63,163 nt of DNA from Balanoglossus misakiensis. Its lineage: Eukaryota; Animalia; Hemichordata. The notes below the pieces were generated by a model. That model saw nothing but the letters and a program-made list of their open reading frames with translations, was not told the origin of the DNA and did no database searches. The translations under genes and the position numbers were made by a program. Below are positions 32,236-62,354 of the stretch, piece after piece (positions within the stretch are counted from its first letter, which is position 1; the number at the start of each line of letters is the position of its first letter). Where the stretch lies: positions 1 to 63,163 of the forward strand of contig JBECUI020000049.1 of the NCBI GenBank assembly GCA_040954595.2, given 5' to 3'.

Positions 32236-32910
32236 TAGGGTGTCAAAAACTTTGAGGTGGTTCACACAAACATAGCTCATGCTTAGGCAGAACGATGAGA
32301 AGCAATTTGTCCGATTGAATTGGTTCTTAATGAGGTTATGAAGCTCGAAGGAACTAAAACTTGGCCAATGGGAATGTACCTCTGAAAATTCCCCAGGTAC
32401 GAGGCAGACTTGGTTTTACCCATCCAATATCGAGAAGGGAATGCGCAGTGAACGGTTTTGAAACTCGCTCTTGCCGAGATGGAGGTGAAGGGTCTGAGTA
32501 CCCGCAAGGTTTCTGACTGTGCCGCAATCCTCTGTGCCACAGCAATGTCAACGGTTCAAGTCAGCCGGGCCTCAAAGGAAGCAGAAGAAGTAATCGCATC
32601 CTGGAAGGCTGAAGAGCTCGGCAAGCTTCAATATCTTATGCTCGATACTACCCATGAAACGCTACGAATCAGCAATAAGAGGACCAGGTGTTCCGTTAGT
32701 GGCCTTTGGCGTGGATTATGGAGCCTGCGGATCTTAGCTGAAACAAGCTTGTTATCAACAGGTGGCGACTACTGGAATGACTGGCCAGATGAGGCCTTCA
32801 TGTGAATGATCAGTTCTGACGAGAACAGGGGTTTATGAGCTATTCACGGTAGTGTTCCTGGGACTCCGCTGGAAGCTGCCAGATCCATTGACAGCAGAAT
32901 GACCTTCGGG
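32236..32910 (+). mobile_element. Degraded IS256-family element remnant
   Basis: LKLALAEMEVKGLSTRKVS...VQVSRASK...YLMLD and later FPGTP...CQIH..QN fragments with stops and shifts; terminus-like TAGGGTGTCAAAAACTTT. Confidence 0.75.
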
Positions 32911-33303
32911 AGTCCTCCCCATAAGAAACTCGATCGTTAATAATCTTTTTGCTATAGAAACCACAGAAAATTTCTTCTTCAGGCCTGTATTTCTCCGTGT
33001 AAGTTTTAGTTTCCCAATTTCTCTCTGCTCCAGGCTCTAGCCGGGAGCAGTCTCTTGGTTCTTGAGGTTTACTCTCTTTAACGGTGCGCTATTTTCAATG
33101 TAATAGGAAATTTTACCTGGAAATTTAAACTTTTGAGCAGGGGCCATTGTGTATTTCCTGTACAAAATGAAGTAAGATTAAAGAGAAAGATTTAAAGATT
33201 AAAAATTTATTCTTTCTCTTAACATGCTCTTTTTAGTAATCTGTATAGAGAATTGCAGACTTTACGATTATCTAAACTATCGTTGCGATTAAAAAGGATT
33301 GAG

Positions 33304-34286
33304 ATGAAACTAGCTATTTACAGCACCAAAACATGGGTCCAACAAGTTTTCTCCAAAGAAAAACCACCCTTTATTGAACTGACCTTTCTGGAGGCTAGGC
33401 TGAACAAGGAAACCGCTTCGCTGTCAGTAGGATTTGACGCTGTGAGTGTTTTTGTGAATGACTCTGTAGACTCCACCGTCATAGAAATCCTTGCCGCAGG
33501 AGGAGTCAAGGTTATTGCTCTGCACTGTGCGGGTTTTAACAATGTGGATATTGCTGCTGCTAAGGAGCATGGCATACTAGTATGCCGGGTACCAGCATAC
33601 TCACCCTATGCCGTGGCCGAACATACCTTAGGGCTTATGTTAAGTCTTAACAGGAAGTATCACCGGGCATACACCCGGATCAGAGAAGGGAACTTTACTC
33701 TGGATGGCCTTCTGGGCTTTGATTTTCATGGTAAGACTGCTGGAATAATAGGGACTGGAAAAATCGGAGAGGCTGTCATGAAGACAATCTCGGGACTGGG
33801 GCTAAGAATTCTAGCCTACGACAAGTATCCCCGAGAGGAAATACTGTCCTTGGGGGGTGTTTATGTCGGTTTGGAGCAGCTCTATAAAGAAAGTGATGTG
33901 ATCACTCTTCATTGTCCCCTCAACCCGGGAACCTACCATCTGATCAACGCTGCTGCCCTGGACTCCATGAAGCGGGGAGTTATGCTCATCAATACGAGTC
34001 GGGGGGCATTAATCGAAACTCCAGTAATTATAGAAGGACTTAAAACAGGAAAAATCGGTTATTTGGGATTGGATGTCTATGAAGAAGAGGGAGATCTCTT
34101 TTTTGAGGATCTTTCGGGGAGATTATCCAGGATGATACCTTTGTGAGATTGCAATCGTTTCCCAATGTTCTCATCACCGGTCATCAAGCTTTCTTTACCA
34201 TTGAGGCTATTGAAAACATTCGTGACTGCACCTATGACAATCTTCAGAGCATTCAAGCAACCGGTACCTGTGATAATTTGGTATAA
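33304..34286 (+). CDS. ldhA: D-lactate/2-hydroxyacid dehydrogenase, frameshifted at a G-run near 34119
   Basis: CAGFNNVD, VPAYSPYAVAEH, GTGKIG, INTSRG, LDVYEEE; next frame gives FPNVLITGHQAFFT to stop at 34286. Confidence 0.85.
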
Positions 34287-36181: not shown

Positions 36182-36210
36182 TTGACTTCCAGCACAGTAA
36201 ATGGTACATA
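36182..36210 (+). promoter_or_regulatory. Sigma70 promoter of sulfur-relay operon
   Basis: TTGACT-17-TACATA upstream of the GGAG RBS of the thiS-like gene. Confidence 0.55.
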
Positions 36211-36241
36211 GTTACCCTGGCTTAACAACTTGGAGAAAAAA

Positions 36242-36466
36242 GTGAAGATTGAACTCAATGGGAAAACATTAGAATTGATTAATCCACTGTTGGTAAGAGA
36301 ACTGCTTGAGGTAGAAAAAGTACTCAATCCAGCTATGGTTTCAGTACAAGTTAATGGCGATATCATTTCAACAGAAGACTTTGACAAATTTATTGTCCAG
36401 GAAGGTGACAAAGTGGAGTTCCTCTATTTTATGGGTGGGGGCAACTACACTTTAATGTGTACCTAG
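36242..36466 (+). CDS. thiS: ThiS-like ubiquitin-fold sulfur carrier with C-terminal extension after GG
   Basis: KIELNG...VSVQVNG...EGDKVEFLYFMGGG followed by NYTLMCT. Confidence 0.85.
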   Translation: MKIELNGKTLELINPLLVRELLEVEKVLNPAMVSVQVNGDIISTEDFDKFIVQEGDKVEFLYFMGGGNYTLMCT

Positions 36467-36560
36467 CCTGGATTCTTATCCGAATCCTAACAATCAAACA
36501 AACTAAAACACTCAAGAAGCTTTTAAAACGAATTTTTCTTTGTTTTGGAGGGCAGAGACT

Positions 36561-37370
36561 ATGATGACAGAAGAGCAGATAAAAAGATATTCCAGGCATA
36601 TCCTTCTTAAGGGCGTTGGAGGGAAAGGACAGGAGAAGCTTCTTACTTCCAAGGTCCTGGTAATTGGTGCTGGTGGGCTGGGTTCTCCCATTGCGCTCTA
36701 CCTGGCGGCGGCGGGAGTGGGTACCATAGGGCTCGTTGATATGGACGTTGTGGAGGTATCCAATCTCCAGAGGCAGGTCTTGCATTTTACGCCGGACATC
36801 GGAAAGCAAAAAACCGTCTCTGCCAAGGAGAAACTGGAATCATTGAACCCCGATGTAAAAATAATAAGCCACACGGAGCGTCTTGGGACTGATAACGTGG
36901 AAACTATCCTTAGTGAATACGATTTTATTGTTGAAGGAACAGATAATTTCCCTACGAAATTTTTGGTAAACGATGCCTGTGTATTTTTAGATAAACCCTT
37001 TAACCAGGGTGGAATCTTGAGATTCCATGGACAGACCCTAACCCATCTTCCTGGTCGAGCGTGCTACCGCTGTGTCTATAGGGAGGCCCCTCCCTTGGAT
37101 GCCGTACCTACCTGTAGTCAGGCTGGCGTCTTTGGAGCTATAGCTGGCATGCTTGGTACCATACAGGCTGCCGAAACCATAAAGTACCTTACTGGTGTAG
37201 GCAGCGTTCTGAGCGACAAGGTACTTTTCTTTGACTCCCTTGATATGGAATTCCGCAAAGTTTCCATTAAAAAAGATCCCCAATGCCCTGTTTGTGGAGA
37301 AAATCCAACAATCACCGAGTTGGTGGAATACGAGCAGGCCATATGCTCCGTTCCCGGAGGAGTCAAATGA
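36561..37370 (+). CDS. ThiF/MoeB/HesA E1-like adenylyltransferase
   Basis: RYSRHI, GAGGLG, SNLQRQ, CYRC and CPVC zinc motifs, PTCSQAG catalytic loop. Confidence 0.93.
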   Translation: MMTEEQIKRYSRHILLKGVGGKGQEKLLTSKVLVIGAGGLGSPIALYLAAAGVGTIGLVDMDVVEVSNLQRQVLHFTPDIGKQKTVSAKEKLESLNPDVKIISHTERLGTDNVETILSEYDFIVEGTDNFPTKFLVNDACVFLDKPFNQGGILRFHGQTLTHLPGRACYRCVYREAPPLDAVPTCSQAGVFGAIAGMLGTIQAAETIKYLTGVGSVLSDKVLFFDSLDMEFRKVSIKKDPQCPVCGENPTITELVEYEQAICSVPGGVK

Positions 37371-37786
37371 TTCAGATACCTAGGGCCCTGGTTCGACAGA
37401 TCCATGAGCAGGCAATTGTGGAACTACCCAACGAGGCTTGCGGCTGCTTACTGGGAAAGGGAGGAAAACTCGCTGAAGTTTACCCCATGACCAATGCCGA
37501 CAAAAGTCCAGAGCATTTTACTCTTATTCCTGAGGAGCAATTTGCAGCCGTAGGCTATGCCAGGAGTAAGGGACTGAAACTTGAAGCGGTGTATCACAGC
37601 CATCCTGAAACACCTGCCCGGATGAGTGAAGAAGATATCAAGCTCGCCTACGATCCTGAGGTTCTGTATCTTATTTACTCCGTTAAGTTTGAAGAGTTAA
37701 AAGGCTTTCAGGTGAAGATAGAAGATGGAAGCAAAAAAGTCATTCCCCGCCCCTTAATTATCCTTGAAGAGGAGGAAGAAGGGTAA
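37367..37786 (+). CDS. JAB/MPN (Mov34, Mec-like) metalloprotease
   Basis: PNEACG and YHSHPETPARMSEED (E...HxHx7SxxD); ATGA overlap with upstream gene. Confidence 0.92.
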   Translation: MIQIPRALVRQIHEQAIVELPNEACGCLLGKGGKLAEVYPMTNADKSPEHFTLIPEEQFAAVGYARSKGLKLEAVYHSHPETPARMSEEDIKLAYDPEVLYLIYSVKFEELKGFQVKIEDGSKKVIPRPLIILEEEEEG

Positions 37787-38716
37787 ATGAAAAAAAATAT
37801 TTTAATTCTTAATTTGATCTTCCTGGCCATTGCAGGTAATGCACAAGAGCAGTGGCTGTACCTGCTTTACCCCGACTATGTTGCGGTTATTGATCCCATC
37901 AATCTGTCCATCGTCAGAGAAATCAGCCTGGAAGGAAGAAAATCCCCCCAAGGGGTATTTCCAACCCCGGGTGGGAAATACGCCTTTGTTGCTTACCAGA
38001 ATAGCCTCGAAATTGATGTTATTGATACAGAACTTCTCAGCATAGAAAGAGTAGAGCGACTCCCCTTGGTTCCCCAGAGTCTCCTGTTCTCTCCCAAGGG
38101 CGAATATGCCTATATAGGAAGTTCAACGGGGGAGATGCTAATCACCGACCACAGGAGGGGTAGCTTTGTTGAAACACAACGAATGACTTCTCTCACGGGA
38201 CCGATTGGGGTCAATAGATTGGGAACAAGGCTGTACCATGGCTCGGGGAAAGAACTTCTCACTCTCTATGTAAAGGATGGAACCATCCTTAAAAAAGCTC
38301 CCTTAAAGTCTTCGGCACTCCACATAAGTGTTGGACCTGATTTTACCACACTATGGGTCGTTACCGAATTTGGACTTAGAATTGTGGACGGGGAGAGGGG
38401 GAAGGTACTCAAGAAATTTGATTTCCCGAAACTAAAGCAGCCTGTACTGATAGGAGAAGACTCGGCCTTTGTGCTCAATGGTTCGGAAGTCAATGTTTAT
38501 TCTCTTAGAAATTTTAAAAAAGGCAAAAACTTCTTTTTGCCCTCGGTGCCCCAATTATGGTTTCTTGATTCCGAGGAAAACATACTGTCTCTTAACTCTA
38601 CAGAAATCACTCTTACCGACAAAACAGGAAACAGTCGTGGTGTCGCCATTGAAAAAGGCTGGTTAGACGCCACTTTTCTGGTACCGAAAAACGACCAGGG
38701 CTTCGCCTGTTATTAA
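37787..38716 (+). CDS. Secreted YncE-like beta-propeller protein
   Basis: Signal peptide; repeats such as PQGVFPTPGGKYAFVA and PQSLLFSPKGEYAYIG; ends GFACY. Confidence 0.75.
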   Translation: MKKNILILNLIFLAIAGNAQEQWLYLLYPDYVAVIDPINLSIVREISLEGRKSPQGVFPTPGGKYAFVAYQNSLEIDVIDTELLSIERVERLPLVPQSLLFSPKGEYAYIGSSTGEMLITDHRRGSFVETQRMTSLTGPIGVNRLGTRLYHGSGKELLTLYVKDGTILKKAPLKSSALHISVGPDFTTLWVVTEFGLRIVDGERGKVLKKFDFPKLKQPVLIGEDSAFVLNGSEVNVYSLRNFKKGKNFFLPSVPQLWFLDSEENILSLNSTEITLTDKTGNSRGVAIEKGWLDATFLVPKNDQGFACY

Positions 38717-38731
38717 AGGAAGAATATTCTC

Positions 38732-39760
38732 ATGATTTCTATATTGAGTGGTGGGGGGCTAGGTCTCTGCCTGGGTTACGTTTTGCAACGGGGTGGTTTT
38801 TGTATGAATACTGCCTTTAGAAGCATCCTTTTTGAGAAGGATCGAAGTTTGCTCAAGGCATGGTTCCTGGTCCTTTTAATAAGCATTCCTGCTCTTGCCT
38901 TATTGGAGGAGTTGCGCATTGTGCATCCAGAGACAGCACCATTTTTCTGGTTAGCGGCCCTGATCGGAGGGCTGGTCTTTGGAATCGGAATGGTGATTGC
39001 CGGTGGTTGTACCAGCGGAACCTGGTACAGGTCTGGCAAAGGCATGCTGGGTTCGGCTGCGGCGCTGGTCGGTTTTGCCCTAGCGGCAACAGCGGCTCGT
39101 TCCGGGGTGCTCTCCGGGCTTACTAGCCTTCTTCGAGGTCCGGTTATTGATGTTTACGGTGAGAACCTCACCCTGGACAATTTCCATCTCCTTCTGGGCC
39201 TGACCTCCTGGGATCCCTTTCTTGTCAAATGGATTTGGACGGGGGTGATTGTTCTAGTTCTTATCTTGGCAATAAGAAGAACACCCAAGCAGAAATTTGT
39301 TATCGGCTGGGGCTGGAGGCGAACCGGTCTGATAGTCGGACTTCTCAGTGTGATGGCCTGGGTATTCTCCGGTTTTACGGGACGGGATTTTGGACTCTCT
39401 TTTACACAGCCAACAATATCCTTAATGGATTGGCTGATCACAGGAGAGAAAGATGCCATAAATTGGTCCACTTATATGCTTGTCGGGGTTCCTCTCGGAG
39501 CCATGCTTGCCGCTTTGAAGCAGGGAGATCTGTCCCTCAGACTTCCTCCACCCAGGCGATTCCTTGCACAATTTTTTGGAGGGGTTCTCATGGGCTTGGG
39601 GGCTGCTATTGCCGGAGGCTGTAATATTGGCCATGGAATAACAGGTATTTCTGTTTTATCCATGACAAGCATTTTGTCCACCATCGCCACCATTGGCGGT
39701 TGTTGGTTGGCAACATGGTTGGTAATGAGAAACGTCCGTAGAAATACGGTACGGGTCTAA
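38732..39760 (+). CDS. YeeE/YedE family (thiosulfate-type) membrane transporter
   Basis: LQRGGFC, GMVIAGGC, GAAIAGGCNIGH: three conserved Cys motifs. Confidence 0.92.
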   Translation: MISILSGGGLGLCLGYVLQRGGFCMNTAFRSILFEKDRSLLKAWFLVLLISIPALALLEELRIVHPETAPFFWLAALIGGLVFGIGMVIAGGCTSGTWYRSGKGMLGSAAALVGFALAATAARSGVLSGLTSLLRGPVIDVYGENLTLDNFHLLLGLTSWDPFLVKWIWTGVIVLVLILAIRRTPKQKFVIGWGWRRTGLIVGLLSVMAWVFSGFTGRDFGLSFTQPTISLMDWLITGEKDAINWSTYMLVGVPLGAMLAALKQGDLSLRLPPPRRFLAQFFGGVLMGLGAAIAGGCNIGHGITGISVLSMTSILSTIATIGGCWLATWLVMRNVRRNTVRV

Positions 39761-39790
39761 AGAAATTTCTCTAAAATTTAGGAGGAGATA

Positions 39791-40666
39791 ATGAATCTAA
39801 AGTTTTTTTATGTTCTACTGTTCTTTATGTTGTTTGGATTTGGGGCTTATGCAAAAGGCCAAACCGAAAGTCTCATCGTCAGTACTTCTTGGTTAAATAA
39901 GAATGCTTCTGACTTGCTTATTCTCGATACAGGCCGTAGTTTCAATGATTTTCTTGAAGGGCACATACCCGGAGCGGTTTTTGCTGACAGATCCTTAGTA
40001 TGGACTACCGTCAATGGCGCGGAGGGGATGTTCCCTCCCGTGGAAACACTTGTCTCTCAGTTTGAGGAACTGGGCGTAGAAACCGATAGGAAAATTCTCA
40101 TTTATGACGGTACTGGGGGACTTTGGGCTTCCAGGATGTTTTTTGCCCTTGAATACCTTGGGCACAACAAAGTCTATGTTTTAGATGGCGGCATTCAGGC
40201 ATGGGAATCTGGTGGATTTGCCTTAAGTACGGAAGAGATAATTCCTGAGAAAACGGTCTTTAACTACAAAGTTAGGGCTGAGTTGCTTGCTGATACGCAA
40301 TACGTGTTGGACAACCTTGAGAATGAAACTGTCCAGATAGTTGACGCGCGGTCTCGTGCTGAATATGAAGGCTCTGATATCAGAACAAAACGTGGTGGAC
40401 ACATCCCCGGAGCTATCAATCTGGATTGGGCGAACAATCTGGATGAAGAACGGAAATTCCTGCCAGTAAGAGAACTAATGGAGTTATACGATTCCCGGGG
40501 CCTTAAAAAAGACAAGACCCAAGTAACCCTTTGTCAGACCGGCGTCCGCGGTGCCCATAACTATCTGGTTCTGAGAAATCTTGGCTATAAAGATGTCAAG
40601 CTTTACGACGAGTCTTGGTTGATATGGGCTAACAGAGACGATACGCCTGTTGATGAAGGAACGTGA
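39791..40666 (+). CDS. Tandem-domain rhodanese/sulfurtransferase with signal peptide
   Basis: AGGAGG RBS; signal peptide ...AYAKGQTE; GHIPGA twice, LDGG, active loop CQTGVR, YDESW. Confidence 0.92.
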   Translation: MNLKFFYVLLFFMLFGFGAYAKGQTESLIVSTSWLNKNASDLLILDTGRSFNDFLEGHIPGAVFADRSLVWTTVNGAEGMFPPVETLVSQFEELGVETDRKILIYDGTGGLWASRMFFALEYLGHNKVYVLDGGIQAWESGGFALSTEEIIPEKTVFNYKVRAELLADTQYVLDNLENETVQIVDARSRAEYEGSDIRTKRGGHIPGAINLDWANNLDEERKFLPVRELMELYDSRGLKKDKTQVTLCQTGVRGAHNYLVLRNLGYKDVKLYDESWLIWANRDDTPVDEGT

Positions 40667-40667
40667 T

Positions 40668-40901
40668 ATGCCCAAACTTCTTGATTTACAAGGGGAGGTC
40701 TGTCCCTACACCTTTGTGAAGAGCAAACTGGAACTAGAATCCATGGCCATTGGGGAAGATTTAGATATCCTGGTGGACAACAGCGAATCGGCTTCCAACG
40801 TTCCCCGAAGCCTGGAAGCGGAAGGGCATAAGGTTCACAGTGTGGAACAGGAAAAAGGAAGTTCCACCTGGCGTATAAAGGTTACCAAAGCGGTAGATTG
40901 A
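40668..40901 (+). CDS. TusA/YeeD family sulfur carrier
   Basis: LDLQGEVCPY motif, ~77 aa. Confidence 0.9.
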   Translation: MPKLLDLQGEVCPYTFVKSKLELESMAIGEDLDILVDNSESASNVPRSLEAEGHKVHSVEQEKGSSTWRIKVTKAVD

Positions 40902-41301
40902 TTTTCTCGGCACTTGCCTTTGTCTTGGTAGGGCAGGAATAGTTCCAAGGCTGAGGCTTGAGTGCCTGGTCCTTAAGCACGGAGTTGCCGGGGGAAATAG
41001 CTATGATTGTCGGGAGAATTTCCGCCTATCTCGCTATTTCCTGTGCTCCACTAACACTACAGCGAAACTTCAACGTATTCAATTTTGGGAGGGGATCTCG
41101 CCTTTATTTCTGAAATAAAGGACAAGCCCTTTATAAGTAAGATAACTGTTAACTCTCTCACTCGCCTTGCTTATTAGATGAATTTCTCTATTGTATTGAA
41201 ACTTCTTTTCATTTAAAGTGATATGTTCGTTATTTCTTAGAGAAAGTAATGAAATTCTCGGTAACGAAAACAATGGCAAAATCATTGATGAGGAGGACAA
41301 T

Positions 41302-43104
41302 ATGAAACAATTTCGTTATGTTATTTTTTCCCTAACCATGAGCATTCTTTTCCTTGTTGGAGGAATGAATGCCATGGCGGGAGGTAGCTCAGAAGAAAGT
41401 GGGGGCACACAACTAAACAACCCAGAGACCTTTGTCTACGGTACCATTGGTGAACCGGCAACCTTGGATCCTGCTGTGGCCTACGACAATGCCTCGGGGG
41501 ACATCATGCTGAATACCCACGAGATGCTTGTGGAATGGTATCGAGATACAGGCAAGCTTATACCTGTTCTCGCTGAAGAACTCCCCACCATGGAAAATGG
41601 TGGCATTAGTGCTGATGGGAAAACCTATCGATTCAAAATCCGTAAAGGCGTCAAGTTCCACAATGGCAACGCTCTGACACCTGAGGATGTGGAATACTCC
41701 TTTGAGAGAAACTTGGTCCTGGACGTAGACCATGGACCTGTATGGATGCATTGGATGGTATTCTTTGAAGATTCCATTGGTCGGAACGACGATGGCAGTT
41801 ACAAGTATTCTGTGGAAGAAATTGATTCCAAGATAGAAGTGGATGGAGATTACGTTGTTTTCAACCTTCCCAAACCTTCTCCCTTTTTCATGGCCATTCT
41901 TTCAGGTTACTGGTCTGCCATTATCGATAAGGAATGGACTATTGCTCAAGGCGGTTGGGATGGTACAGCTGCTGACCGGGATCGAGTGAGCAACCCTCCC
42001 ACGGGAGAGGAATTACTCTTAGACATTGTCAACGGCACAGGCCCTTACAAGTTGAATCGTTGGGTAAAGGGAGATGAAGTTGTTCTGGTACGTAATGACG
42101 AATACTGGGGAGAACTTCCTTCTATTCCCAACGCCATCTACAAGAAAGTGGATGAATGGTCTACCCGAAAACTGATGTTTCTGCAAGGCGATTTGGACTA
42201 TGCCTATATTGAGCCTGTCTACTGGCCTGAGATGGAGCAGGAAGCTAGTTTGGTCTATTACGACAAGCTACCCAGTCTTGCTATTACAGGGCTTATGTTC
42301 CAGTTTGCTATCAATACCCAAGATAACCCCTACGTTTTCTCTGGTAAGCTAGATGGTCAAGGTATTCCTTCCGACTTCTTTGCTGATAAGCATGTACGAC
42401 TTGGCTTCATGTATGCCTGGGACGAAGAAACTTTCCTGAGAGATGTGGGATCGGGAGCGTATATTGACCCTGTGGGTCCCATTCCTTCCGGTCTCCCCTT
42501 CGATAATAAGGATGTTAAACGTCTTCCTTTTGATCTTGCTGAGGCAGAAAAGCATTTCAAACAGGCTTTCAATGGCGAAGCTTGGGAAAAGGGCTTTGTT
42601 ATTGAGTTCCTTTATAATGAAGGCAACAACGTTCGTGGTGGTGCTTTAAGAATACTGGCAGAAAACATCATGTCCCTCAATGATAAGTTCAAAATCACCA
42701 CGCGCTCTATTCCCTGGCCCGAGTTCTTGGCCCTCTCCAAAGATAGACGTGCCCCGATTTTCAGCATTGGTTGGCAGCCGGATTATCCTGATGCGGACAA
42801 CTATGTCGATCCCTTTATGTACTCCAAAGGCTATTTTGCAGAACGAGGTAGTTATAGCAACCCCGAGGTTGATGAGCTTGTTCTTCGAGGACGTTATGCC
42901 CTTGAAACGGAAGTCAGAGCCCAGGCCTACAAACGTCTTGAAGAAATTTATGTAGAAGATGCCATCGGTATGGTTTATGGCCAAACCATTGGACGTCAAT
43001 GGACGCGGGATTGGATTACTTGGGATGATGGATTTTATTATCAACCTGAAAATACGGATTTATTCAAAAGACTTCGTCATTTGAATAAAGGTCAGGGGAA
43101 CTAA
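41302..43104 (+). CDS. Peptide/nickel ABC transporter substrate-binding protein (family 5)
   Basis: GAGGAGG RBS; TLDPA, KIRKGVKFHNG..LTPEDV, NGTGPYKL, GWQPDYPD. Confidence 0.92.
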   Translation: MKQFRYVIFSLTMSILFLVGGMNAMAGGSSEESGGTQLNNPETFVYGTIGEPATLDPAVAYDNASGDIMLNTHEMLVEWYRDTGKLIPVLAEELPTMENGGISADGKTYRFKIRKGVKFHNGNALTPEDVEYSFERNLVLDVDHGPVWMHWMVFFEDSIGRNDDGSYKYSVEEIDSKIEVDGDYVVFNLPKPSPFFMAILSGYWSAIIDKEWTIAQGGWDGTAADRDRVSNPPTGEELLLDIVNGTGPYKLNRWVKGDEVVLVRNDEYWGELPSIPNAIYKKVDEWSTRKLMFLQGDLDYAYIEPVYWPEMEQEASLVYYDKLPSLAITGLMFQFAINTQDNPYVFSGKLDGQGIPSDFFADKHVRLGFMYAWDEETFLRDVGSGAYIDPVGPIPSGLPFDNKDVKRLPFDLAEAEKHFKQAFNGEAWEKGFVIEFLYNEGNNVRGGALRILAENIMSLNDKFKITTRSIPWPEFLALSKDRRAPIFSIGWQPDYPDADNYVDPFMYSKGYFAERGSYSNPEVDELVLRGRYALETEVRAQAYKRLEEIYVEDAIGMVYGQTIGRQWTRDWITWDDGFYYQPENTDLFKRLRHLNKGQGN

Positions 43105-43115
43105 TTATTATTTAC

Positions 43116-43143
43116 TAGGGCTGTGATTTTGATCACAGCCCTA
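43116..43143 (+). terminator. Intercistronic hairpin after the SBP gene (mRNA stabiliser or attenuator)
   Basis: TAGGGCTGTGAT-TTTG-ATCACAGCCCTA 12-bp perfect stem, no strong U-tract. Confidence 0.65.
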
Positions 43144-43226
43144 AGTCCACTGATTTAAGAGAAACTGTTCCTGTGAGAGGGGGAGTTCTTCTTAAACTTT
43201 ATACATAATTCAGATGGAGCAAGACC

Positions 43227-44261
43227 TTGGTTCTCTTTAATTTCATCATACGAAGATTATTAATGACAGTCCTCATCTTAATAGGCGTGACGCTCATTGT
43301 CTTTTCTGTCCTTATGATGCTCCCACCGGGGCAGCGGGTCAGTGTCTATGTTAACAGCGAACGGGTAAATGCCCAGCAGATGGACGATTTAATAGAAAAA
43401 TACGGATTGAACGATCCAGCTTCCGTACAGTACTTTCGTTGGCTAAAGGGTATTTTAAAGGGTGATTTAGGATATTCTGTGGTGGCTTCTGATCCTGTAA
43501 TTACTGCTTTTAAACGATATTTTCCCGTCACCATGGAATTGGTACTGTTTGCAACACCCCTCATTATTATTGTGGGAATCTGGCTGGGAACCTTAGCGGC
43601 TGTTCACCGGGATAGCATGATAGACCATAGTTTGCGTATTTTTGCCATTGTCGGCTATTCTCTCCCGACCTTCTGGCTGGGTCTCATGCTCCTTATGATT
43701 TTTTATGGAAGCCTGGGAATCTTTCCGCCAGGGATTCTCTCTAATGCAGGAAAAAATATTTTTTATAGTGAAGAATTTAAACACTATACCTACCTTATTA
43801 CCATAGATGCCATACTCAATGGAGAGTGGAAACTGTTTTGGGATGCTCTTTATCATTTAGCCCTTCCTGCTTTGAATCTGGTTATTTTAAGCAGCGCCAT
43901 GATCCTGCGCATTACTCGCTCCAGCATGCTGGAAGTTCTTGGACAAGACTACATCCGTACAGCCTTGGCCAAAGGGGCGGATAAAAAGCTTATTTATCGG
44001 AAACATGCTCGGAGGAATGCCATGATTCCTATCATTACCATATCAGGACTTCTCTTTGCTGGTCTTATGGCCGGCATGGTCATTACGGAAACCATATTTT
44101 CCCGTCATGGAATTGGTCGTTGGATGGCAGAAGCTGCCTTAAGGTTGGATATTGCCGCTATCATGTTCAACGTGCTTTTCCTCTCAGCTGTGTATGTCTC
44201 AATGAATCTTCTTGTTGATATCATTTATGCCTATGTAGATCCTAGAATCCGGTTATCTTAA
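43227..44261 (+). CDS. Peptide ABC transporter permease (DppB/OppB-like)
   Basis: RSSMLEVLGQDYIRTALAKG EAA-like loop, DPRIR end. Confidence 0.92.
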   Translation: MVLFNFIIRRLLMTVLILIGVTLIVFSVLMMLPPGQRVSVYVNSERVNAQQMDDLIEKYGLNDPASVQYFRWLKGILKGDLGYSVVASDPVITAFKRYFPVTMELVLFATPLIIIVGIWLGTLAAVHRDSMIDHSLRIFAIVGYSLPTFWLGLMLLMIFYGSLGIFPPGILSNAGKNIFYSEEFKHYTYLITIDAILNGEWKLFWDALYHLALPALNLVILSSAMILRITRSSMLEVLGQDYIRTALAKGADKKLIYRKHARRNAMIPIITISGLLFAGLMAGMVITETIFSRHGIGRWMAEAALRLDIAAIMFNVLFLSAVYVSMNLLVDIIYAYVDPRIRLS

Positions 44262-44286
44262 TCCTTAGAGAAGGAGAATACAGATC

Positions 44287-45231
44287 ATGAGTGTTACAAG
44301 TATAGCGCCGACTGATTCAAAAGAAAAAATAGTTCAACATCCGTTTCTTCAGGAATTTTTGTTTTCGGCCAAGCGATTCTTAAAGAATCCTTTAACCATT
44401 ATAGGTTTAGTAATTATTTTAGGTTTTGCTATCGTAGCTCTTCTAGCCCCCGTAATTGCTCCCCCTGAGAAAGCTGATACTCCCTATTTGATACCCCACG
44501 ATGGATGGAAAATGGAACCATCGCCTCCCTCAAAGGAGCATCCTTTTGGAACCCTTCCCCAGCAATTTGATATTTTTTACGGTCTGGTCTGGGGGACGCG
44601 GAATGCCTTTAAAATAGGTTTCCTTATTGTTCTGGCTAATATGATTATTGGGGTGACTCTGGGGGCCATTGCCGGGTATTTTGGAGGGGTAATTGACGAG
44701 GTGATCATGCGAATCACCGATATGTTTTATGCCATGCCCTTTCTCGTTGTATCCATGGCCATTGTGGTAGTCATAGGTAAGGGGCTTACTTCCATTATAC
44801 TTGTCTTGATACTTTTGGGCTGGAGAATCTATACGCGGGTTATTCGGGCCGAGATATTGATTATTCGAGGGCATGATTATATACAGGCTGCCAAGGCCTC
44901 TGGTGCCGGACATTTCAATATTATTTTCCGACATATCCTCCCCAACACCATCTACTCCGTCATCATAGTGGCTTCCATGAATATTGGTACCACGGTGTTA
45001 TTGGCGGCGGCCCTTTCCTTTCTCGGTCTGGGAGCCGATATTGGCTATGCTGACTGGGGTGCCATGGTATCCTTGGCACGGGAGTGGATTGTTGGCCCGC
45101 CATCTGCCAGGCTTCATTATTGGTTTGTCGTATTTATCCCTGGATTTACCATAGCCTTGTTTGTTCTTGGTTGGAATCTTCTGGGAGATGCTGCACGTGA
45201 TGTGTTTGATCCTAAGCAGCGGAGGCGATAG
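44287..45231 (+). CDS. Peptide ABC transporter permease (DppC/OppC-like)
   Basis: HPFGT, YIQAAKASGA, RHILPN, NLLGDAARDVFDP. Confidence 0.92.
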   Translation: MSVTSIAPTDSKEKIVQHPFLQEFLFSAKRFLKNPLTIIGLVIILGFAIVALLAPVIAPPEKADTPYLIPHDGWKMEPSPPSKEHPFGTLPQQFDIFYGLVWGTRNAFKIGFLIVLANMIIGVTLGAIAGYFGGVIDEVIMRITDMFYAMPFLVVSMAIVVVIGKGLTSIILVLILLGWRIYTRVIRAEILIIRGHDYIQAAKASGAGHFNIIFRHILPNTIYSVIIVASMNIGTTVLLAAALSFLGLGADIGYADWGAMVSLAREWIVGPPSARLHYWFVVFIPGFTIALFVLGWNLLGDAARDVFDPKQRRR

Positions 45232-46532
45232 TGGCTGTTCTTCTTAAAACAAGAGATCTTAAAACAAATTTTCATACCTTTGAAGGCGTTGTTAGGGCAC
45301 TTAACAGTGTTGCGGTGGAAGTTCATCAAGGGGAGACCTACGGTTTAGTAGGGGAATCCGGATGTGGAAAAAGTGTCACGGTCCGCAGCATGATGCGTAT
45401 TGTTCAGGCTCCCGGTAGAATTGAAGAAGGCAAAATCTTCATATTCTTTGATGAAAAAGATAAAGAGCGAGGTATCGATATCCTCCAGCAATCTGAAGCC
45501 TATATGCAGCAGGTTCGCGGGAATGAGATCTCCATGATATTCCAAGAAGCCGGAACGGCGCTGAATCCGGTTTTTTCTGTAGAAAACCAGGTAGGAGAAA
45601 GCTTTGAATTTCATAGAATGGAGGCCATGCTTGAAGAAGTCATTAACGATCTGGAGAAAAGCATAGCTGATGGAAAGACTGGTTTTCTGGGACTCAATCG
45701 ATTTAAACACTATCTTTTTAAGCAAGAGCTTCAGAGTCACAAGTGCTATCAAGAAATTGCAGACAAACTTGATGCCAGAATTCTTGATTTAAAAAACCTC
45801 AACCCAGAAGACAACTCTTCCCGCATTAAGACATTGACCCGAAAGCGGGAGAATCTTCGGTCCAGAGCCCTGCTTGTGCAGATAGCCCGGAGTATTCCTT
45901 TAGTAAAACGATATAGAAAAGCCCTGAAGCAGGTTATCCGTCGGCATATTATTGATTTACTCCGTAGTCTTGGCCTACCGAATCCCGAAAATGTGGTGGA
46001 CCGTTACCCCCACGAACTTTCGGGAGGAATGCAGCAACGCATCGTTATTGCCATTGCCCTGGCTTGTCATCCCAAACTACTCATAGCTGATGAGCCTACG
46101 AGCAATCTGGATGTTACTATTCAGGCGCAGATTGTTGATCTTATGAAGCATTTGAAGAAGACCAAAATCAGTTCAGTCATTTTTATTACCCATGACTTGG
46201 GTCTTGTGGCAGAACTTTGTGATCGTGTGTCTGTCATGTATGCTGGAGATCTTGTCGAAACAGCCTCGGTTACGAATCTTTTTAAGGAGCAGTACCACCC
46301 CTACACCAAGGGCCTAATTGCCTCCATACCTAAAAGGGAACAAACTGAAAATTTGCAACCCATTCCCGGTACAGTACCGAATCTGGTACACCCCCCAACG
46401 GGTTGCCGCTTCCATCCTCGTTGTCCGAAGGCCATGGAATTATGTTCGCGCATAAAACCCCAAACCATAGAAAAAACTCCAGGTCATTTTGTAGCCTGCC
46501 ACCTGTACTACCAGCATAATGAAACTAAATAA
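45231..46532 (+). CDS. Peptide ABC transporter ATP-binding protein (DppD-like) with a long helical insertion
   Basis: GESGCGKS, LSGGMQQR, IADEPT, C-terminal CRFHPRC..C..C. Confidence 0.92.
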   Translation: MAVLLKTRDLKTNFHTFEGVVRALNSVAVEVHQGETYGLVGESGCGKSVTVRSMMRIVQAPGRIEEGKIFIFFDEKDKERGIDILQQSEAYMQQVRGNEISMIFQEAGTALNPVFSVENQVGESFEFHRMEAMLEEVINDLEKSIADGKTGFLGLNRFKHYLFKQELQSHKCYQEIADKLDARILDLKNLNPEDNSSRIKTLTRKRENLRSRALLVQIARSIPLVKRYRKALKQVIRRHIIDLLRSLGLPNPENVVDRYPHELSGGMQQRIVIAIALACHPKLLIADEPTSNLDVTIQAQIVDLMKHLKKTKISSVIFITHDLGLVAELCDRVSVMYAGDLVETASVTNLFKEQYHPYTKGLIASIPKREQTENLQPIPGTVPNLVHPPTGCRFHPRCPKAMELCSRIKPQTIEKTPGHFVACHLYYQHNETK

Positions 46533-46546
46533 TAGAGGAAAATCTG

Positions 46547-47617
46547 ATGTCTAGTCCTTCTCCCTATAATCTCCTTGATATACGACAATTAAAAAAATAT
46601 TATCCCATACGCAGCGGCGTATTCCGCCGTCTTAAAGATAACGTCAAGGCTGTAGATTCCGTTGACCTTGCTATTCCCCGGGCTAGTTGTCTGGGACTTG
46701 TTGGAGAGTCGGGCTGTGGTAAAACCACCTTAGGAAAGACAGTGTTACGACTCCATGAGCCTACCGAAGGGCGTATCTATTTTGACCGACCCGCAGAGAA
46801 AATAAATCAACTGGAAGCCCAGCTGGCCTCCGGCGACACAAGCAAAGAATTTCAACTCGAACTGGCCCAAAACGATATTTCCCATCTCAAGGGACAAAAA
46901 CTGAAAAAACTTCGCAGGAATATCCAGATTGTCTTTCAGGATCCCTCTAATTCTTTAAATCCCCGGATGCCGGTAAAGCATATTGTTGCCGAACCTCTTG
47001 TCATTCAGGGTTTGGCCAAAGGCTCAGCCCTGAATGAGCGAATCCTTGAGCTTTTTTCTATTGTAGGACTTTCCCGGCATCACCTGATGCGCTATCCTCA
47101 CGAATTCTCAGGTGGACAGCGTCAACGCATAGCCATAGCTCGGGCCTTGGCCACCAATCCTAAGTTTGTGCTGATGGATGAGCCCACCAGCGCCTTGGAT
47201 GTCTCAGTGCAGGCCCAGATTCTGAATCTTTTAAAAGAACTTCAAAGTCAACTGAAACTCACCTATTTGTTTGTTACTCATCATCTACTTGTAATCAAAT
47301 ATATTAGCCAGCAGGTGGCCGTCATGTACTTAGGGAAAATCATGGAAATTTCTGAAACTCAGGAACTCTTTACCAGCTCTCTCCATCCCTACACGAAGGC
47401 CCTTCTTTCGGCTATCCCCACAATAGATTCAGAGACAAAAACAGAGAAAATCATTCTATCCGGCGATGTACCCAACCCCATAAACCCGCCCTCCGGCTGT
47501 CGATTTCATCCCCGTTGTCCTTTTGTAAAAAATATCTGCAAAGAACAGGAGCCGGCTTTAGAAGACATTGGTGGTGGACATAAAGTTGCCTGCCATCGGT
47601 GGAATGAAATCAATTAG
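46547..47617 (+). CDS. Peptide ABC transporter ATP-binding protein (DppF-like)
   Basis: GESGCGKT, FSGGQRQR, MDEPT, CRFHPRC. Confidence 0.92.
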   Translation: MSSPSPYNLLDIRQLKKYYPIRSGVFRRLKDNVKAVDSVDLAIPRASCLGLVGESGCGKTTLGKTVLRLHEPTEGRIYFDRPAEKINQLEAQLASGDTSKEFQLELAQNDISHLKGQKLKKLRRNIQIVFQDPSNSLNPRMPVKHIVAEPLVIQGLAKGSALNERILELFSIVGLSRHHLMRYPHEFSGGQRQRIAIARALATNPKFVLMDEPTSALDVSVQAQILNLLKELQSQLKLTYLFVTHHLLVIKYISQQVAVMYLGKIMEISETQELFTSSLHPYTKALLSAIPTIDSETKTEKIILSGDVPNPINPPSGCRFHPRCPFVKNICKEQEPALEDIGGGHKVACHRWNEIN

Positions 47618-47821
47618 CCTTTTTACCAGGTGATGTCAGAAATCTTGCTTAGGTGCAGATCTTCAATGGTGAAAGATCCTGACCTTGCTGCATCGCTTTG
47701 AGTAAGTCCCTATCCCGAGACTCTCTTGTACTCCATGTTGTTCCCCTATCTGCCTGTGCCTGGCAGCTGATAGCATAAGGGCCGAATCCCCATCGGGGAA
47801 ATGTTCTGCTATTTGGTTCTG

Positions 47822-47910
47822 CGAACCAGGGTTCTTCGAACCAGGGTTCTTCGAACCAGGGTTCTTCGAACCAGGGTCTTCGAACCAGGGTTCTTCGAAC
47901 CAGGGTTCTG
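47822..47910. repeat. Tandem repeat, 6 x 15 bp (CGAACCAGGGTTCTT)
   Basis: Directly visible; 4th copy 14 bp, 6th copy ends in G. Confidence 0.95.
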
Positions 47911-48328
47911 CGTTTGATTTCTTTCATGATTCTTTCAAGAGGATTATTAGTCCTGATCCGAATCCAATGTTCCTGAGGGAAATACCTATGCTCAAGAGTT
48001 TCGTGGATATGGTTTTTCACCATGTTAGCAGCCTTGGGAAGTTTCATATTGCGGAGTTTCGCTTCAATCAGTTGAGCCTTCTCAAGAGCAGCATCACGAT
48101 CTTCTTGCGCATTGAACCTTCAGGCATTGCTGCAACTTCACGGACCTTCTCACGGGGAATCACCTGAGAATACATTCCGGTAATAGTGAACAACGCATCG
48201 TTGCCATCGTGCTTTAGGGAAAAACTCTTCGATGGATTCAGGCCAATCCGATGCATTTGTCGCTTATGAAGAGCTTTAGTATCCTTGCCTTTTTAGAATG
48301 TGCGCAATTTTTTAAACACTACCGCCGA

Positions 48329-48358
48329 AGTAGGGACAGGTCGCGACCTGTCCCTACT
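48329..48358. repeat. Perfect 30-bp palindrome, GTAG-type REP-like, copy 1
   Basis: AGTAGGGACAGGTCGCGACCTGTCCCTACT equals its own reverse complement. Confidence 0.9.
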
Positions 48359-48581
48359 CATTGATGGGTTGATTCCGCCAAGTATTGATTCTCTACTAAG
48401 AGATCCTGGTTCAAATTGCTCATTGTCCCAGGGCTTTACCTTGCTTCCCCAAAGGGCCTCGGTAATATCTTTAACTCGGCGCACTGAAACAGCAGCTAAA
48501 TACATTTCAACTAAGGCTTCTTCAACGGATGTTTCCCGGCGTTTATAACGCTCAATAATTGCTGTTTCGAATGGAAGCCGA

Positions 48582-48611
48582 AGTAGGGACAGGTCGCGAC
48601 CTGTCCCTACT
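48582..48611. repeat. Perfect 30-bp palindrome, REP-like, copy 2
   Basis: Identical to copy 1. Confidence 0.9.
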
Positions 48612-48939
48612 CTTGAAAGCAGTGATATCCAACTTCCTGGTGTAATGTCCAGCACGAGTATCTTTTCGTGCATCCGTAGGTTCGTATTTTTCAGCCTGAA
48701 GTAAAAGATCTGCCTCTGCATTGAGCATGGCATTCAAGGTTCCCTCATACGGTTTTTTTAAGCATTTGGCTGCTCTGTAGGAGACCTTCATCGATCTGTA
48801 TGATCTTTCCCGTGGGGTCTTTTTCTGACCTCATTTTGTCCTCCGTGTGAATGGTTTTACATTCGATTCCATTTCAACATTGGAGGACATTTTTTTTCAA
48901 TGCCTTTTTAGAATGTGCGCAATTTTTTAAACACCACCA

Positions 48940-49026
48940 ATTAAACACTTCGCAAAACTAGTATACAACAAGGAAATTGCAGAAAACGAATACAGCATTT
49001 CCGTATCCAACTATGTCGCTGCCGAA
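48940..49026 (+). pseudogene. Fragment resembling the C-terminus of type I R-M methyltransferase HsdM
   Basis: IKHFAKLVYNKEIAENEYSISVSNYVAAE resembles the HsdM ...EIAENDYNLSVSSYV motif. Confidence 0.6.
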
Positions 49027-49055
49027 GTAGGGACAGGTCGCGACCTGTCCCTACT
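49026..49055. repeat. Perfect 30-bp palindrome, REP-like, copy 3
   Basis: Identical to copy 1. Confidence 0.9.
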
Positions 49056-49278
49056 CATTGATGGGTTGATTCCGCCAAGTATTGATTCTCTACTAAGAGA
49101 TCCTGGTTCAAATTGCTCATTGTCCCAGGGCTTTACCTTGCTTCCCCAAAGGGCCTCGGTAATATCTTTAACTCGGCGCACTGAAACACCAGCTAAATAC
49201 ATTTCAACTAAGGCTTCTTCAACGGATGTTTCCCGGCGTTTATAACGCTCAATAATTGCTGTTTCGAATGGAAGCCGA

Positions 49279-49308
49279 AGTAGGGACAGGTCGCGACCTG
49301 TCCCTACT
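49279..49308. repeat. Perfect 30-bp palindrome, REP-like, copy 4
   Basis: Identical to copy 1. Confidence 0.9.
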
Positions 49309-49744
49309 CTTGAAAGCAGTGATATCCAACTTCCTGGTGTAATGTCCAGCACGAGTATCTTTTCGTGCATCCGTAGGTTCGTATTTTTCAGCCTGAAGTA
49401 AAAAATCTGCCTCTGCATTGAGCATGGCATTCAAGGTTCCCTCTACGGTTTTTTTAAGCATTTGGCTGCTCTGTAGGAGACCTTCATCGATCTGTATGAT
49501 CTTTCCCGTGGGGTCTTTTTCTGACCTCATTTTGTCCTCCGTGTGAATGGTTTTACATTCGATTCCATTTCAACATTGGAGGACATTATTTTTGCAATGC
49601 ATTGTAAAATGTGCGCAATTTTTTAATGATATCTTTTACTTTCTATCCAATTCCAGGTTTTTTCCTGGATTGACTGCACCTTTCTATCCTGTTGCAGCCA
49701 GGCATCGTCGAACCCTTCTCCCTGGGAAATTTAGGAGTTGTTTG

Positions 49745-60556: not shown

Positions 60557-62354
60557 ATGAACAATCCAGAGAAGTCTTCAGCAATATACGATGAAAGCAA
60601 GATCAAAACTCTTTCTTCCCTGGAGCATATCCGGCTTCGGACGGGCATGTATATCGGTCGTTTGGGAAATGGTTCCAATCCCGAGGATGGTATTTACATC
60701 TTGATAAAAGAAATTGTCGATAATGCCATCGATGAATACATTATGGGCTTTGGGAAAAAAATTGAGTTAAAACATAAAAATAATCTGATCACCTGTCGAG
60801 ACTATGGTCGGGGCATTCCTCATGGCAAACTGGTGGAATGTGTCAGTGTGATCAATACGGGAGCAAAATACAACAGCGAAGTTTTTCAATTTTCAGTTGG
60901 TCTCAATGGAGTGGGCACCAAGGCCGTAAATGCTCTTTCTTCTCATTTCCTGGTTCGTTCTTACCGGAATGGTCGTTATAAAGAAGCACGTTTTCAACGA
61001 GGTAAACTGATCCAGGAGTCTCAGGGAGTTTGCAAAGGACAGCCTGACGGCACCAGCATAGAATTTCAGCCCGATGAGGAATCTTTGCGGAATATTCTTT
61101 ACCGATGAATATATAGAAACAGCGTATGTGGAACTACGCATGCCTTAACAGGAATCTTCGGCTTTATCATATGGCAAGAAATTTGAATCTAAACGGGGCT
61201 TACATGACCTGTTGGAATCTGAGATCGGAGATTCCTTTCTCTATCCCATTGTTTATTGTAGTGCTGACAAGTTGGAATTTGCCTTTACCCACACGCACAA
61301 CTATGGAGAAAACCATTTCTCCTTTGTTAATGGTCAGCATACCTCCAATGGTGGTACCCACCAGAGCGCTTTTCGAGAAGGCTTATTAAAAGGATAAATG
61401 AGTACACTAAAAAAAAATTATTCAGGAGCCGATGTTCGAGAAGGTATCGCCGGAGCCATTGCTATTAAGGTTGAAGTTCCCATATTTGAAAGTCAAACCA
61501 AAATAAATTGGGAATACAGAATCCGTTCTTGGGTTATTTCTGAGGTAAAGGCGGGTGTTGTGGATTTCCTCCACAAAAATCCCTCATCGGCCAGGATACT
61601 GGAAAACAAGATTCTCAATAACGAAAAATTCCGCAAAGAACTTAACTCCGTCAAAAAAGAAGCTAGGGCGGCGGCCAAGAAAATTTCCTTGAACATTCCT
61701 AAACTCAAAGATTGTAAAATTCATCGCAGCGAAAAGCGTGGGGAAGAATCCTGTATTTTTATTACCGAAGGCCCATCGGCTGCTGGGAGCATGGTGAGCT
61801 GTCGGGATGTTCAGACCCAGGCCATTTATTCTCTGCGAGGCAAACCCTGGAATTCCTATGGCAAGGGCCAAGCAGCCATTTACAAGAACGAAGAACTCTT
61901 CAATCTTATGATGGCCTTGGGAATCGAAAATAGTATTGACGGTCTACGCTATGAAAAAATTGTCTTGGCTACCGATGCCGATACCGATGGCTACCACATC
62001 CGTAACCTTATCCTGACTTTTTTTCTGAATCATTTTGAAGAACTTGTGACAGCAGGGCATGTGTATATTTTGGAAACCCCTTTATTTCGGGTAAGGAACA
62101 AAAAGGAAGTGGTCTACTGTTACAACGAACGGGAAAGAGATGGAGCTGTTCGGCGAATCCGAGGGGCAGAGCTTACCCGATTTAAGGGCTTGGGAGAAAT
62201 CAATCCTAAGGAATTTGGCCAGTTCATCGGAGCTGATATACGCATTGTCCCGGTACATATTGGCACCATAAAGAACGTCTCAGAAACTCTGGAATTTTAT
62301 ATGGGAAAAAATACTCCCCAACGTCGGGATTATATCGTGGAAAATCTTCTCTAA
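60557..62354 (+). CDS. parE: DNA topoisomerase IV subunit B (GyrB family), several frameshifts
   Basis: EHIRLRTGMYIG, KEIVDNAIDE, GLNGVG, ITEG.SA, LRGKP, ATDADTDG, RFKGLGE. Confidence 0.9.

Follow-up and report, generated by a model that had tools for sequence, protein, structure and literature searches.

A spirochaete operon predicted to pass imported sulfane sulfur to a Wolinella-type carrier for sulfur amino acid synthesis

The window analyzed here is a 63,163-nucleotide stretch of DNA (contig JBECUI020000049.1 of assembly GCA_040954595.2, deposited under Balanoglossus misakiensis), and its feature of interest is an operon of seven genes encoding a ThiS-like sulfur carrier, two enzymes that would process it, and four proteins predicted to bring in sulfur. 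The window is spirochaete DNA, with a 16S gene 86–87% identical to those of four genomes of the main order studied and 77% identical to that of genome G002. All seven open reading frames (ORFs) are intact on the + strand in the order thiS-E1-JAB-propeller-yeeE-rhodanese-tusA, with junctions of 94, −4, 0, 15, 30, and 1 bp. This is the tightly coupled layout described in an earlier reading of the sequence (the original prediction), and from the tight spacing only we infer that the seven genes are co-transcribed. The single promoter of that reading is the weak point: the candidate at 36182–36210 (+ strand, read from the sequence) has a good −35 box (TTGACT, at 36182), a 17-bp spacer, and a poor −10 box (TACATA, preceded by TG), and was not reported by promoter consensus scans. 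As also predicted, none of the operon genes is a thiG, moaE, cysM, metY, or sulfite reductase gene. A public contig spanning the operon shows zero differences inside it, but possibly derives from the source sample and is thus not independent. Genome-wide statements below rest on relatives, mostly metagenome-assembled and of unstated completeness; the searches covered spirochaete genomes, namely 99 of one order, a 401-genome sample of the phylum, and a class sample with 28 carrier-positive genomes.

The first three genes and the last form a recognizable cytoplasmic module. The gene at 36242–36466 starts with GTG and encodes an HcyS-type ThiS sulfur carrier of 74 amino acids that scores above the TIGR01683 cut-off and matches PF02597 (family scans used 36245 onward, one codon past the start). 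The carrier ends in FLYFMGGG followed by the seven-residue extension NYTLMCT (GGG-NYTLMCT), and trimming would therefore be needed before use. Each of the 12 aligned carriers has an unchanged FLYFMGGG with further residues after it (12 of 12), which explains the presence of the JAB/JAMM metallopeptidase gene (37367–37786; PF14464), whose product has an intact E...HSH...S..D motif. The E1 gene (36561–37370; PF00899) encodes a ThiF/MoeB-type adenylyltransferase without a rhodanese domain, with two CxxC motifs, C185, and a C-terminal EQxxC cysteine, C262, the last being common to most E1s of these clusters. The final gene (40668–40901; PF01206) encodes a TusA/SirA-family carrier with a single cysteine, C12, in a CPYT motif. 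No match to the ThiS-like carrier was found in plasmids.

Such a module serves a protein-thiocarboxylate pathway to methionine in Wolinella succinogenes, where its components are called HcyS, HcyF, and HcyD. Table 1 of Iyer et al. (PMC1779556) lists a neighborhood type, 4e, that includes Wolinella and combines ThiS, a rhodanese-less E1, JAB, and SirA with an O-acetylhomoserine sulfhydrylase and sulfate-reduction genes, and Wolinella MetY (PDB 3RI6) is described as drawing sulfur from a thiocarboxylated carrier (PMC8191291). The window shares the carrier residues after Gly-Gly, the rhodanese-less E1, the JAB, and the SirA/TusA protein with this type, and its relatives share a dedicated O-acetylhomoserine sulfhydrylase. 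In contrast, the window cluster lacks a sulfate transporter, ATP sulfurylase, APS reductase, and sulfite reductase, so that sulfate activation and sulfite reduction are absent as an in-cluster sulfur source; the propeller, YeeE, rhodanese, and TusA genes stand there instead, and metY is gone from the operon. Judged from its sequence, the cytoplasmic set (a ThiS with a cleavable tail, E1, JAB, and a TusA of SirA type) is the sulfur-carrier module already known from Wolinella. The mycobacterial CysO/Mec/MoeZ/CysM system is a cysteine pathway that likewise uses a carrier, a JAB, and an E1 for a sulfur amino acid; unlike it, the E1 here carries no fused rhodanese domain and the consumer linked in relatives is of the MetY type. 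Neighborhood types 4c–4d of the same survey (PMC1779556) correspond to that mycobacterial-type pathway.

Three side observations concern this module. In genome G556 (L240:9754-10764), ThiS and E1 are fused in frame: the start of E1 directly adjoins the carrier GGG, and JAB and the import genes come next. Here the JAB would have to release the carrier from the enzyme that activates it. Searches of that genome found neither a carrier-type MetY nor a sulfite reductase, a PAPS-reductase domain, or a ThiG, and a single-sequence fold of the fusion was uninformative (pLDDT 30). A second tusA-thiS-JAB copy at L187 (G468:C380) has tusA and thiS ends matching those of G470 and is possibly a binning contaminant. 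Finally, a dsrE-like gene and a CPMT-type tusA recur in carrier operons (L244, L249, L255, L256, L258–L260, L262, and L041).

The remaining genes encode the putative import proteins. The gene at 37787–38716 encodes a YVTN/YncE-like beta-propeller with an export signal and a single cysteine, C308, on a C-terminal QGFACY tail; it matches no family above cut-off and was assigned by its predicted fold. The AlphaFold model has a pLDDT of 92 and its best solved structural match is a YVTN propeller, while the last nine residues have low confidence and the tail is probably flexible. An alignment of 57 propellers, from which five short or chimeric tail-less hits (P0001, P0021, P0022, P0036, and P0065) and loci truncated at the end of a contig were left out, shows the penultimate cysteine in all 57 ([FY]AC[FY] tail) and no second cysteine in the mature chain, although identity is low, at about 25%, and is 16–29% to the protein of the window. 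For comparison, a cysteine within the last four residues occurs in just 7 of the 123 remaining proteins that these searches returned, and one of the 7 is a misfiled family member. The 3' end of the propeller gene is present at 40 of 44 loci, and in 40/40 of these the protein ends in [FY]ACF and the next gene is yeeE, even where no rhodanese gene comes after yeeE. One of the omitted hits, P0065, joins the N-terminal part of a propeller to the C-terminal part of a rhodanese, probably by deletion or misassembly across the operon.

Export signals had been predicted for two components, and both are supported by a hydrophobicity test (best 12-residue Kyte-Doolittle mean ≥2.0 in the N-terminal segment; not SignalP). 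An N-terminal hydrophobic segment was found in 54 of 56 propellers with enough N-terminus and in 29/29 rhodaneses, versus 0/66 E1, JAB, TusA, and MetY controls. The exported rhodanese (39791–40666; PF00581) has two domains, and its one cysteine, C248, sits in a CQTGVR loop; among solved structures its best relative is Azotobacter RhdA (entry 1E0C). In cable bacteria, periplasmic rhodaneses have been proposed to form thiosulfate for YeeE (PMC13047784). Searches for more distant relatives returned little: the propeller had no relative in a scan of genome contigs and in the ESM Atlas matched only generic YncE-like clusters, the rhodanese matched only distant rhodaneses in metagenome contigs, and a search for propeller fusions among longer proteins, weak evidence in itself, gave just one distant repeat protein.

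YeeE, encoded at 38732–39760 (PF04143), is a YeeE/TsuA-family membrane protein. Its residues C24, C93, C297, and R218 are conserved in 34/34 aligned proteins and correspond to C22, C91, C293, and R215 of S. thermophila YeeE, where they are described as pathway residues (PMC7449682, PMC11073785; PDB 6LEO, 8J4C). The window thus resembles the YeeE(TsuA)/YeeD(TsuB) pair in having a full-length YeeE with three pathway cysteines and the outer arginine and a TusA-family partner nearby. It differs in that the window's YeeE family has K/R at the position of S. thermophila YeeE E101, in the TusA motif, which is CPYT rather than the CPxP of YeeD/TsuB, and in the two partners with export signals, which go unmentioned in the accessible portions of PMC7449682 and PMC11073785. 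YeeE falls below the cut-offs of the TsuA models (NF052577, 223.2 of 400 bits; NF041049, 181.3 of 645 bits), as does TusA for NF041048 (35.8 of 147.5 bits).

SoxY, a periplasmic sulfur carrier with an Ig-like fold and a GGCGG motif, offers the nearest analogy for the propeller. In Hyphomicrobium, a SoxY-to-SoxT hand-over of sulfur to a YeeE-like protein has been proposed (PMC11582611), and the shared idea is that a periplasmic protein with a near-C-terminal cysteine brings sulfane sulfur to a YeeE-family channel. The propeller has an export signal, a lone invariant tail cysteine, and a gene adjacent to yeeE, and may be loaded with sulfur in a comparable way; it differs from SoxYZ in its beta-propeller fold, its [FY]AC[FY] tail, and its assimilatory context. 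No Sox genes were seen at the loci, and the propeller had no SoxY family hit. A prediction of the YeeE-propeller complex, made without alignments, scored 0.06 and speaks neither for nor against contact.

The neighborhood search suggested with the original prediction found all seven families together in one locus in 13 other spirochaete genomes (L041, L104, L108–L110, L115, L116, L124, L133, L136, L240, L242, and L246). The commonest order in relatives is thiS-metY-E1-JAB-propeller-yeeE-rhodanese-tusA, which L104, L124, L133, L241, L242, and L246 follow as far as the rhodanese gene; L040 follows it until its contig stops. The window has this order minus metY, as does G556 with ThiS and E1 fused, and G486 appears to share the metY-less order across two contig ends. 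The window E1 is closest to that of L040, within a 24-row clade (SH-aLRT 95, quick tree) in which most genomes have a MetY paralogue. Genes flanking the related clusters are not conserved. The propeller profile matched in 42 of the 99 genomes of one order (at E 1e-20) and in 5 of the 28 carrier-positive genomes of the class sample, with 1/4 in a further small set; in the phylum sample, where five candidates were scored per genome, it was strong in 2 of 401, and a third genome, G333, holds a weak yet true member. Two family members are named by NCBI as from Alkalispirochaeta assemblies.

Some loci depart from the usual gene forms. At L104:7441-9474 (G425), YeeE and the rhodanese form one 677-residue ORF with the hydrophobic segment kept between them, either a natural fusion or the result of a lost stop codon. 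Many import cassettes that have no carrier are accompanied by a second rhodanese, with a CRSGAR or CRTASR loop and no export signal (L102, L103, L105, L127, L128, L130, L131, L135, L137, and L138). An exported rhodanese of CGAGYA type is present as well at L102, L103, and L105, the last of which further encodes a redoxin and a DsbD-like membrane protein.

The relatives' metY gene bears directly on what the carrier serves. Two MetY groups occur in the relatives: a housekeeping group, often encoded after cysK, and a long-branch group tied to the carrier, which forms its own clade (SH-aLRT 100, quick tree). When the profile of the carrier-type group was searched against solved structures, Wolinella MetY (3RI6) came out on top (465.9 versus 464.4 bits for the next entry); the housekeeping profile did not list 3RI6 at 1e-120. 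Among the 23 genomes with both carrier and propeller, the paralogue lies right after thiS in 16 and elsewhere in 2 (G470 and G472), and it was not found in 5. Within the one order of 99 genomes, it occurs in 13/18 carrier-positive versus 2/81 carrier-negative genomes (Fisher p 1e-10, uncorrected for kinship and with a MetY profile built largely from those same genomes). The original prediction had left the carrier's target as a choice between sulfur assimilation and protein conjugation; with an O-acetylhomoserine sulfhydrylase paralogue directly behind thiS in relatives, an open choice of that kind is not supported. This linkage and the poor showing of other consumers in relatives (see below) place the pathway most likely in sulfur amino acid synthesis.

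The original prediction does stand in leaving the consumer unassigned for metY-less operons like this one. The 94-bp gap between thiS and E1 (36467–36560) is the sole loose junction of the operon and lies where relatives place the carrier-type metY; for this reason, the window operon reads as a metY-deleted derivative whose gene was lost from the cluster. No metY remnant is detectable in the gap, and the carrier-type MetY profile has no match within the 63-kb window. Operons without metY are scattered over the E1 tree, which suggests repeated loss. The five genomes in which the paralogue was not found (G407, G418, G468, G486, and G556) all have a housekeeping MetY, and in G407, where all that is seen of the propeller is a tail at the beginning of a contig, thiS is directly followed by rrf2-cysK. 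Genes for Rrf2 and CysK are recurrent neighbors of carrier clusters. The window's consumer is quite possibly, at somewhat less than an even chance, a MetY paralogue encoded elsewhere in the genome. Almost as likely, it is the housekeeping MetY/CysK pair, and less probably the module is a relic or serves another consumer. Weak cysK-like matches upstream of thiS were rejected, since equally high scores came from 181 of 300 shuffles. A guessed palindrome pattern of Rrf2 type was present in just 1 of 40 upstream regions.

A second line of evidence concerns the source of reduced sulfur. When 48 carrier-positive genomes were searched for a sulfite reductase domain, 2 of the 23 with the propeller and 15 of the 25 without it had one (Fisher p 2e-4), a split dominated by one order and with a few of the 25 propeller-less genomes having an ordinary or lone ThiS (e.g., G757, beside thiG). 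In carrier genomes, the propeller-YeeE-rhodanese-TusA cassette thus largely replaces sulfite reductase. Where a sulfite reductase is encoded next to such a carrier, its C-terminus is often a fused TusA domain, which has a CPxN motif and is 38–53% identical to the window TusA; for that reason TusA looks like a common socket for either sulfur source.

Taken together, we consider it probable that the operon imports sulfane sulfur (thiosulfate or polysulfide) and that a protein-bound relay loads the carrier for homocysteine or cysteine synthesis without sulfite reductase. The original prediction had pictured such a relay across the membrane, and one conserved cysteine was indeed found for each step (rhodanese C248, propeller C308, YeeE C297/C93/C24, and TusA C12). 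Gene content, order, motifs, N-terminal hydrophobic segments, and co-occurrence were observed directly, and from these we infer all of the chemical steps. The exported rhodanese would take the sulfane atom onto C248, leaving sulfite outside, and would pass it to C308 on the propeller tail, which would present it at C297, the outer cysteine of YeeE. YeeE would then relay the sulfur via C93 and C24 to C12 of TusA. In the cytoplasm, the JAB would trim the ThiS extension and the E1 would adenylate the new terminus, on which the TusA-borne sulfur, perhaps via the E1 tail cysteine, would form a thiocarboxylate. This would be used by an O-acetylhomoserine sulfhydrylase, as in Wolinella, which in most relatives would be the MetY paralogue encoded after thiS. 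Splitting thiosulfate outside the cell would spare cells without sulfite reductase from importing sulfite. A bolder version, which we regard as tentative, holds that the propeller, with its cysteine tail as a swinging arm, represents a new class of sulfur carrier in the periplasm, that YeeE is a cysteine-to-cysteine relay and not a thiosulfate pore, that sulfur stays protein-bound from outside the membrane up to the thiocarboxylate, and that metY-less operons, such as this one and that of G556, serve a consumer so far not known to accept a thiocarboxylate.

Several observations weigh against the relay. In the 28-genome class sample alone, the sulfite reductase split is 1/5 versus 15/23 (p 0.13); G002 and G525 have both propeller and sulfite reductase; and G594 has a sulfite-reductase-like fragment that the domain search missed. 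Of 5 propeller genomes tested, 4 encode CysD- or CysH-like proteins, in two cases beside a cysteate synthase or serine-palmitoyltransferase-like gene. The lead of 3RI6 in the MetY search is only 1.5 bits, and the invariance of the propeller cysteine holds for an alignment from which tail-less hits had been omitted. The paralogue was not found in 5/7 relatives without metY beside thiS, and the contigs of G556 are long, so that some of these losses look real. In 27 of the 42 propeller-positive genomes of the order no such carrier was found, and the front end can accordingly work without one. Finally, the solved structure shows free thiosulfate bound by an arginine and cysteines that YeeE retains, and its substrate could still be intact thiosulfate.

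The last three of these points favor an alternative that we consider unlikely but the most serious of those weighed, in which YeeE imports intact thiosulfate through a channel with R218 and all three cysteines in place, TusA breaks it down, as in the YeeE/YeeD pair, so that the housekeeping CysK and MetY receive sulfide, the propeller and rhodanese act as helpers that bind or condition the substrate, and the ThiS, E1, and JAB of this operon are left-overs from before the carrier-type MetY was lost. Housekeeping MetY-like genes would be available for this in 89 of the 99 genomes, several of them adjoining cysK. A left-over module is, however, at odds with the intact thiS, E1, and JAB of the window, with all of their motifs, and with G556, which keeps a JAB beside its ThiS-E1 fusion, an arrangement sensible only if cleavage is still needed. 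Plain import also leaves the invariant lone cysteine on an exported propeller unexplained, and the window TusA, with CPYT and not CPxP, is closer to carrier-module TusAs than to YeeD.

A further alternative, conjugation of the carrier to proteins in the manner of SAMP or TtuB with the JAB as deconjugase, or delivery to some other sulfur-inserting enzyme, appears improbable. The E1 resembles archaeal UbaA and the JAB resembles desampylase models, both below cut-off, and no dedicated consumer was found in metY-less genomes, but the JAB is already explained by the extension on every aligned carrier, the carrier co-occurs with a sulfhydrylase paralogue and has Rrf2 and cysK genes recurring beside it, and none of the 5 relatives tested (5/5) has a TtuA-like gene (TIGR00269). 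Still less credible is a cassette that exports excess sulfane sulfur or handles selenite in the manner of YedE and YedF. Spirochaetes of this class tolerate or reduce sulfur, and the best NCBIfam score of the window TusA is to YedF (46.6 bits, below cut-off); against this, YeeE scores 223 and 181 bits to TsuA models versus 89 and 33 bits to selenium YedE models, the tail cysteine is present in all 40 complete propeller genes at the loci, and the linked genes are biosynthetic.

That the carrier is an ordinary ThiS or MoaD for thiamine or molybdopterin is very improbable: the carrier does pass the TIGR01683 cut-off, the E1 is above a MoeB subfamily cut-off, L041 has mobAB and moaA beside the cluster, and MoaE was found in 8/20 carrier-positive genomes, including 5 of the 6 with metY-less operons in that search, yet MoaE was not found in the other 12 of the 20 and was found in 4/6 carrier-negative genomes, a separate MoaD and/or E1 is encoded next to MoaE in all three cases inspected (G418, G470, and G486), and no full-length ThiG, the partner whose discovery was to have overturned the original prediction, occurs in the 99 genomes of the order (best 31.7 bits, partial) or in 5 further entries searched. 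Pfam ThiG matches in these searches were partial TIM-barrel hits and were rejected, since a genuine ThiG matched along its entire length with 344 bits.

Other observations concern the surroundings of the operon and of related loci. Downstream of tusA, after a gap of about 400 bp, the same strand carries an oligopeptide-type ABC transporter operon (41218–47617); no terminator was called between the two, and the transporter operon is not kept beside related clusters. Upstream, a D-2-hydroxyacid dehydrogenase gene (33253–34146) seems shortened, and the public contig has one extra base near 34115, so the break is probably a sequence error in the window. A Mutator-family transposase fragment lies at 32458–32805, and similar-looking duplicated transposase pieces were read by eye at about 48–49 kb (47649–49430). 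A gyrase/topoisomerase B-like gene (60557–62354) likewise appears, by eye, to be in pieces, possibly through further sequence errors. In two other spirochaete genomes, cysD-cysN lies beside a cysteate synthase gene (L284, G679) and an APS reductase gene lies beside a serine-palmitoyltransferase-like gene (L283, G486), which suggests sulfonolipid synthesis in these spirochaetes.

The downstream half of the system is thus a known pathway whose consumer has been displaced or lost, and the system as a whole is not new in category. What is new is the propeller with its cysteine tail and its tie to YeeE, together with the replacement of sulfite reductase by this cassette. Both are undescribed as far as we could search: the open-access literature, supplements and subscription papers apart, contained no description of the propeller family or the cassette. 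Two questions left open in the literature are touched by this operon, namely the acceptors of sulfur from the YeeE/TusA pair, those of YeeD sulfur being called unidentified in PMC11073785, and the loading of YeeE-family channels from a periplasmic protein cysteine, as raised in PMC11582611. The operon offers candidate partners on both sides of YeeE in one 4.7-kb unit of small proteins, the unnamed propeller family gains a testable function, and the arrangement suggests how spirochaetes without sulfite reductase may obtain sulfur for methionine and cysteine.

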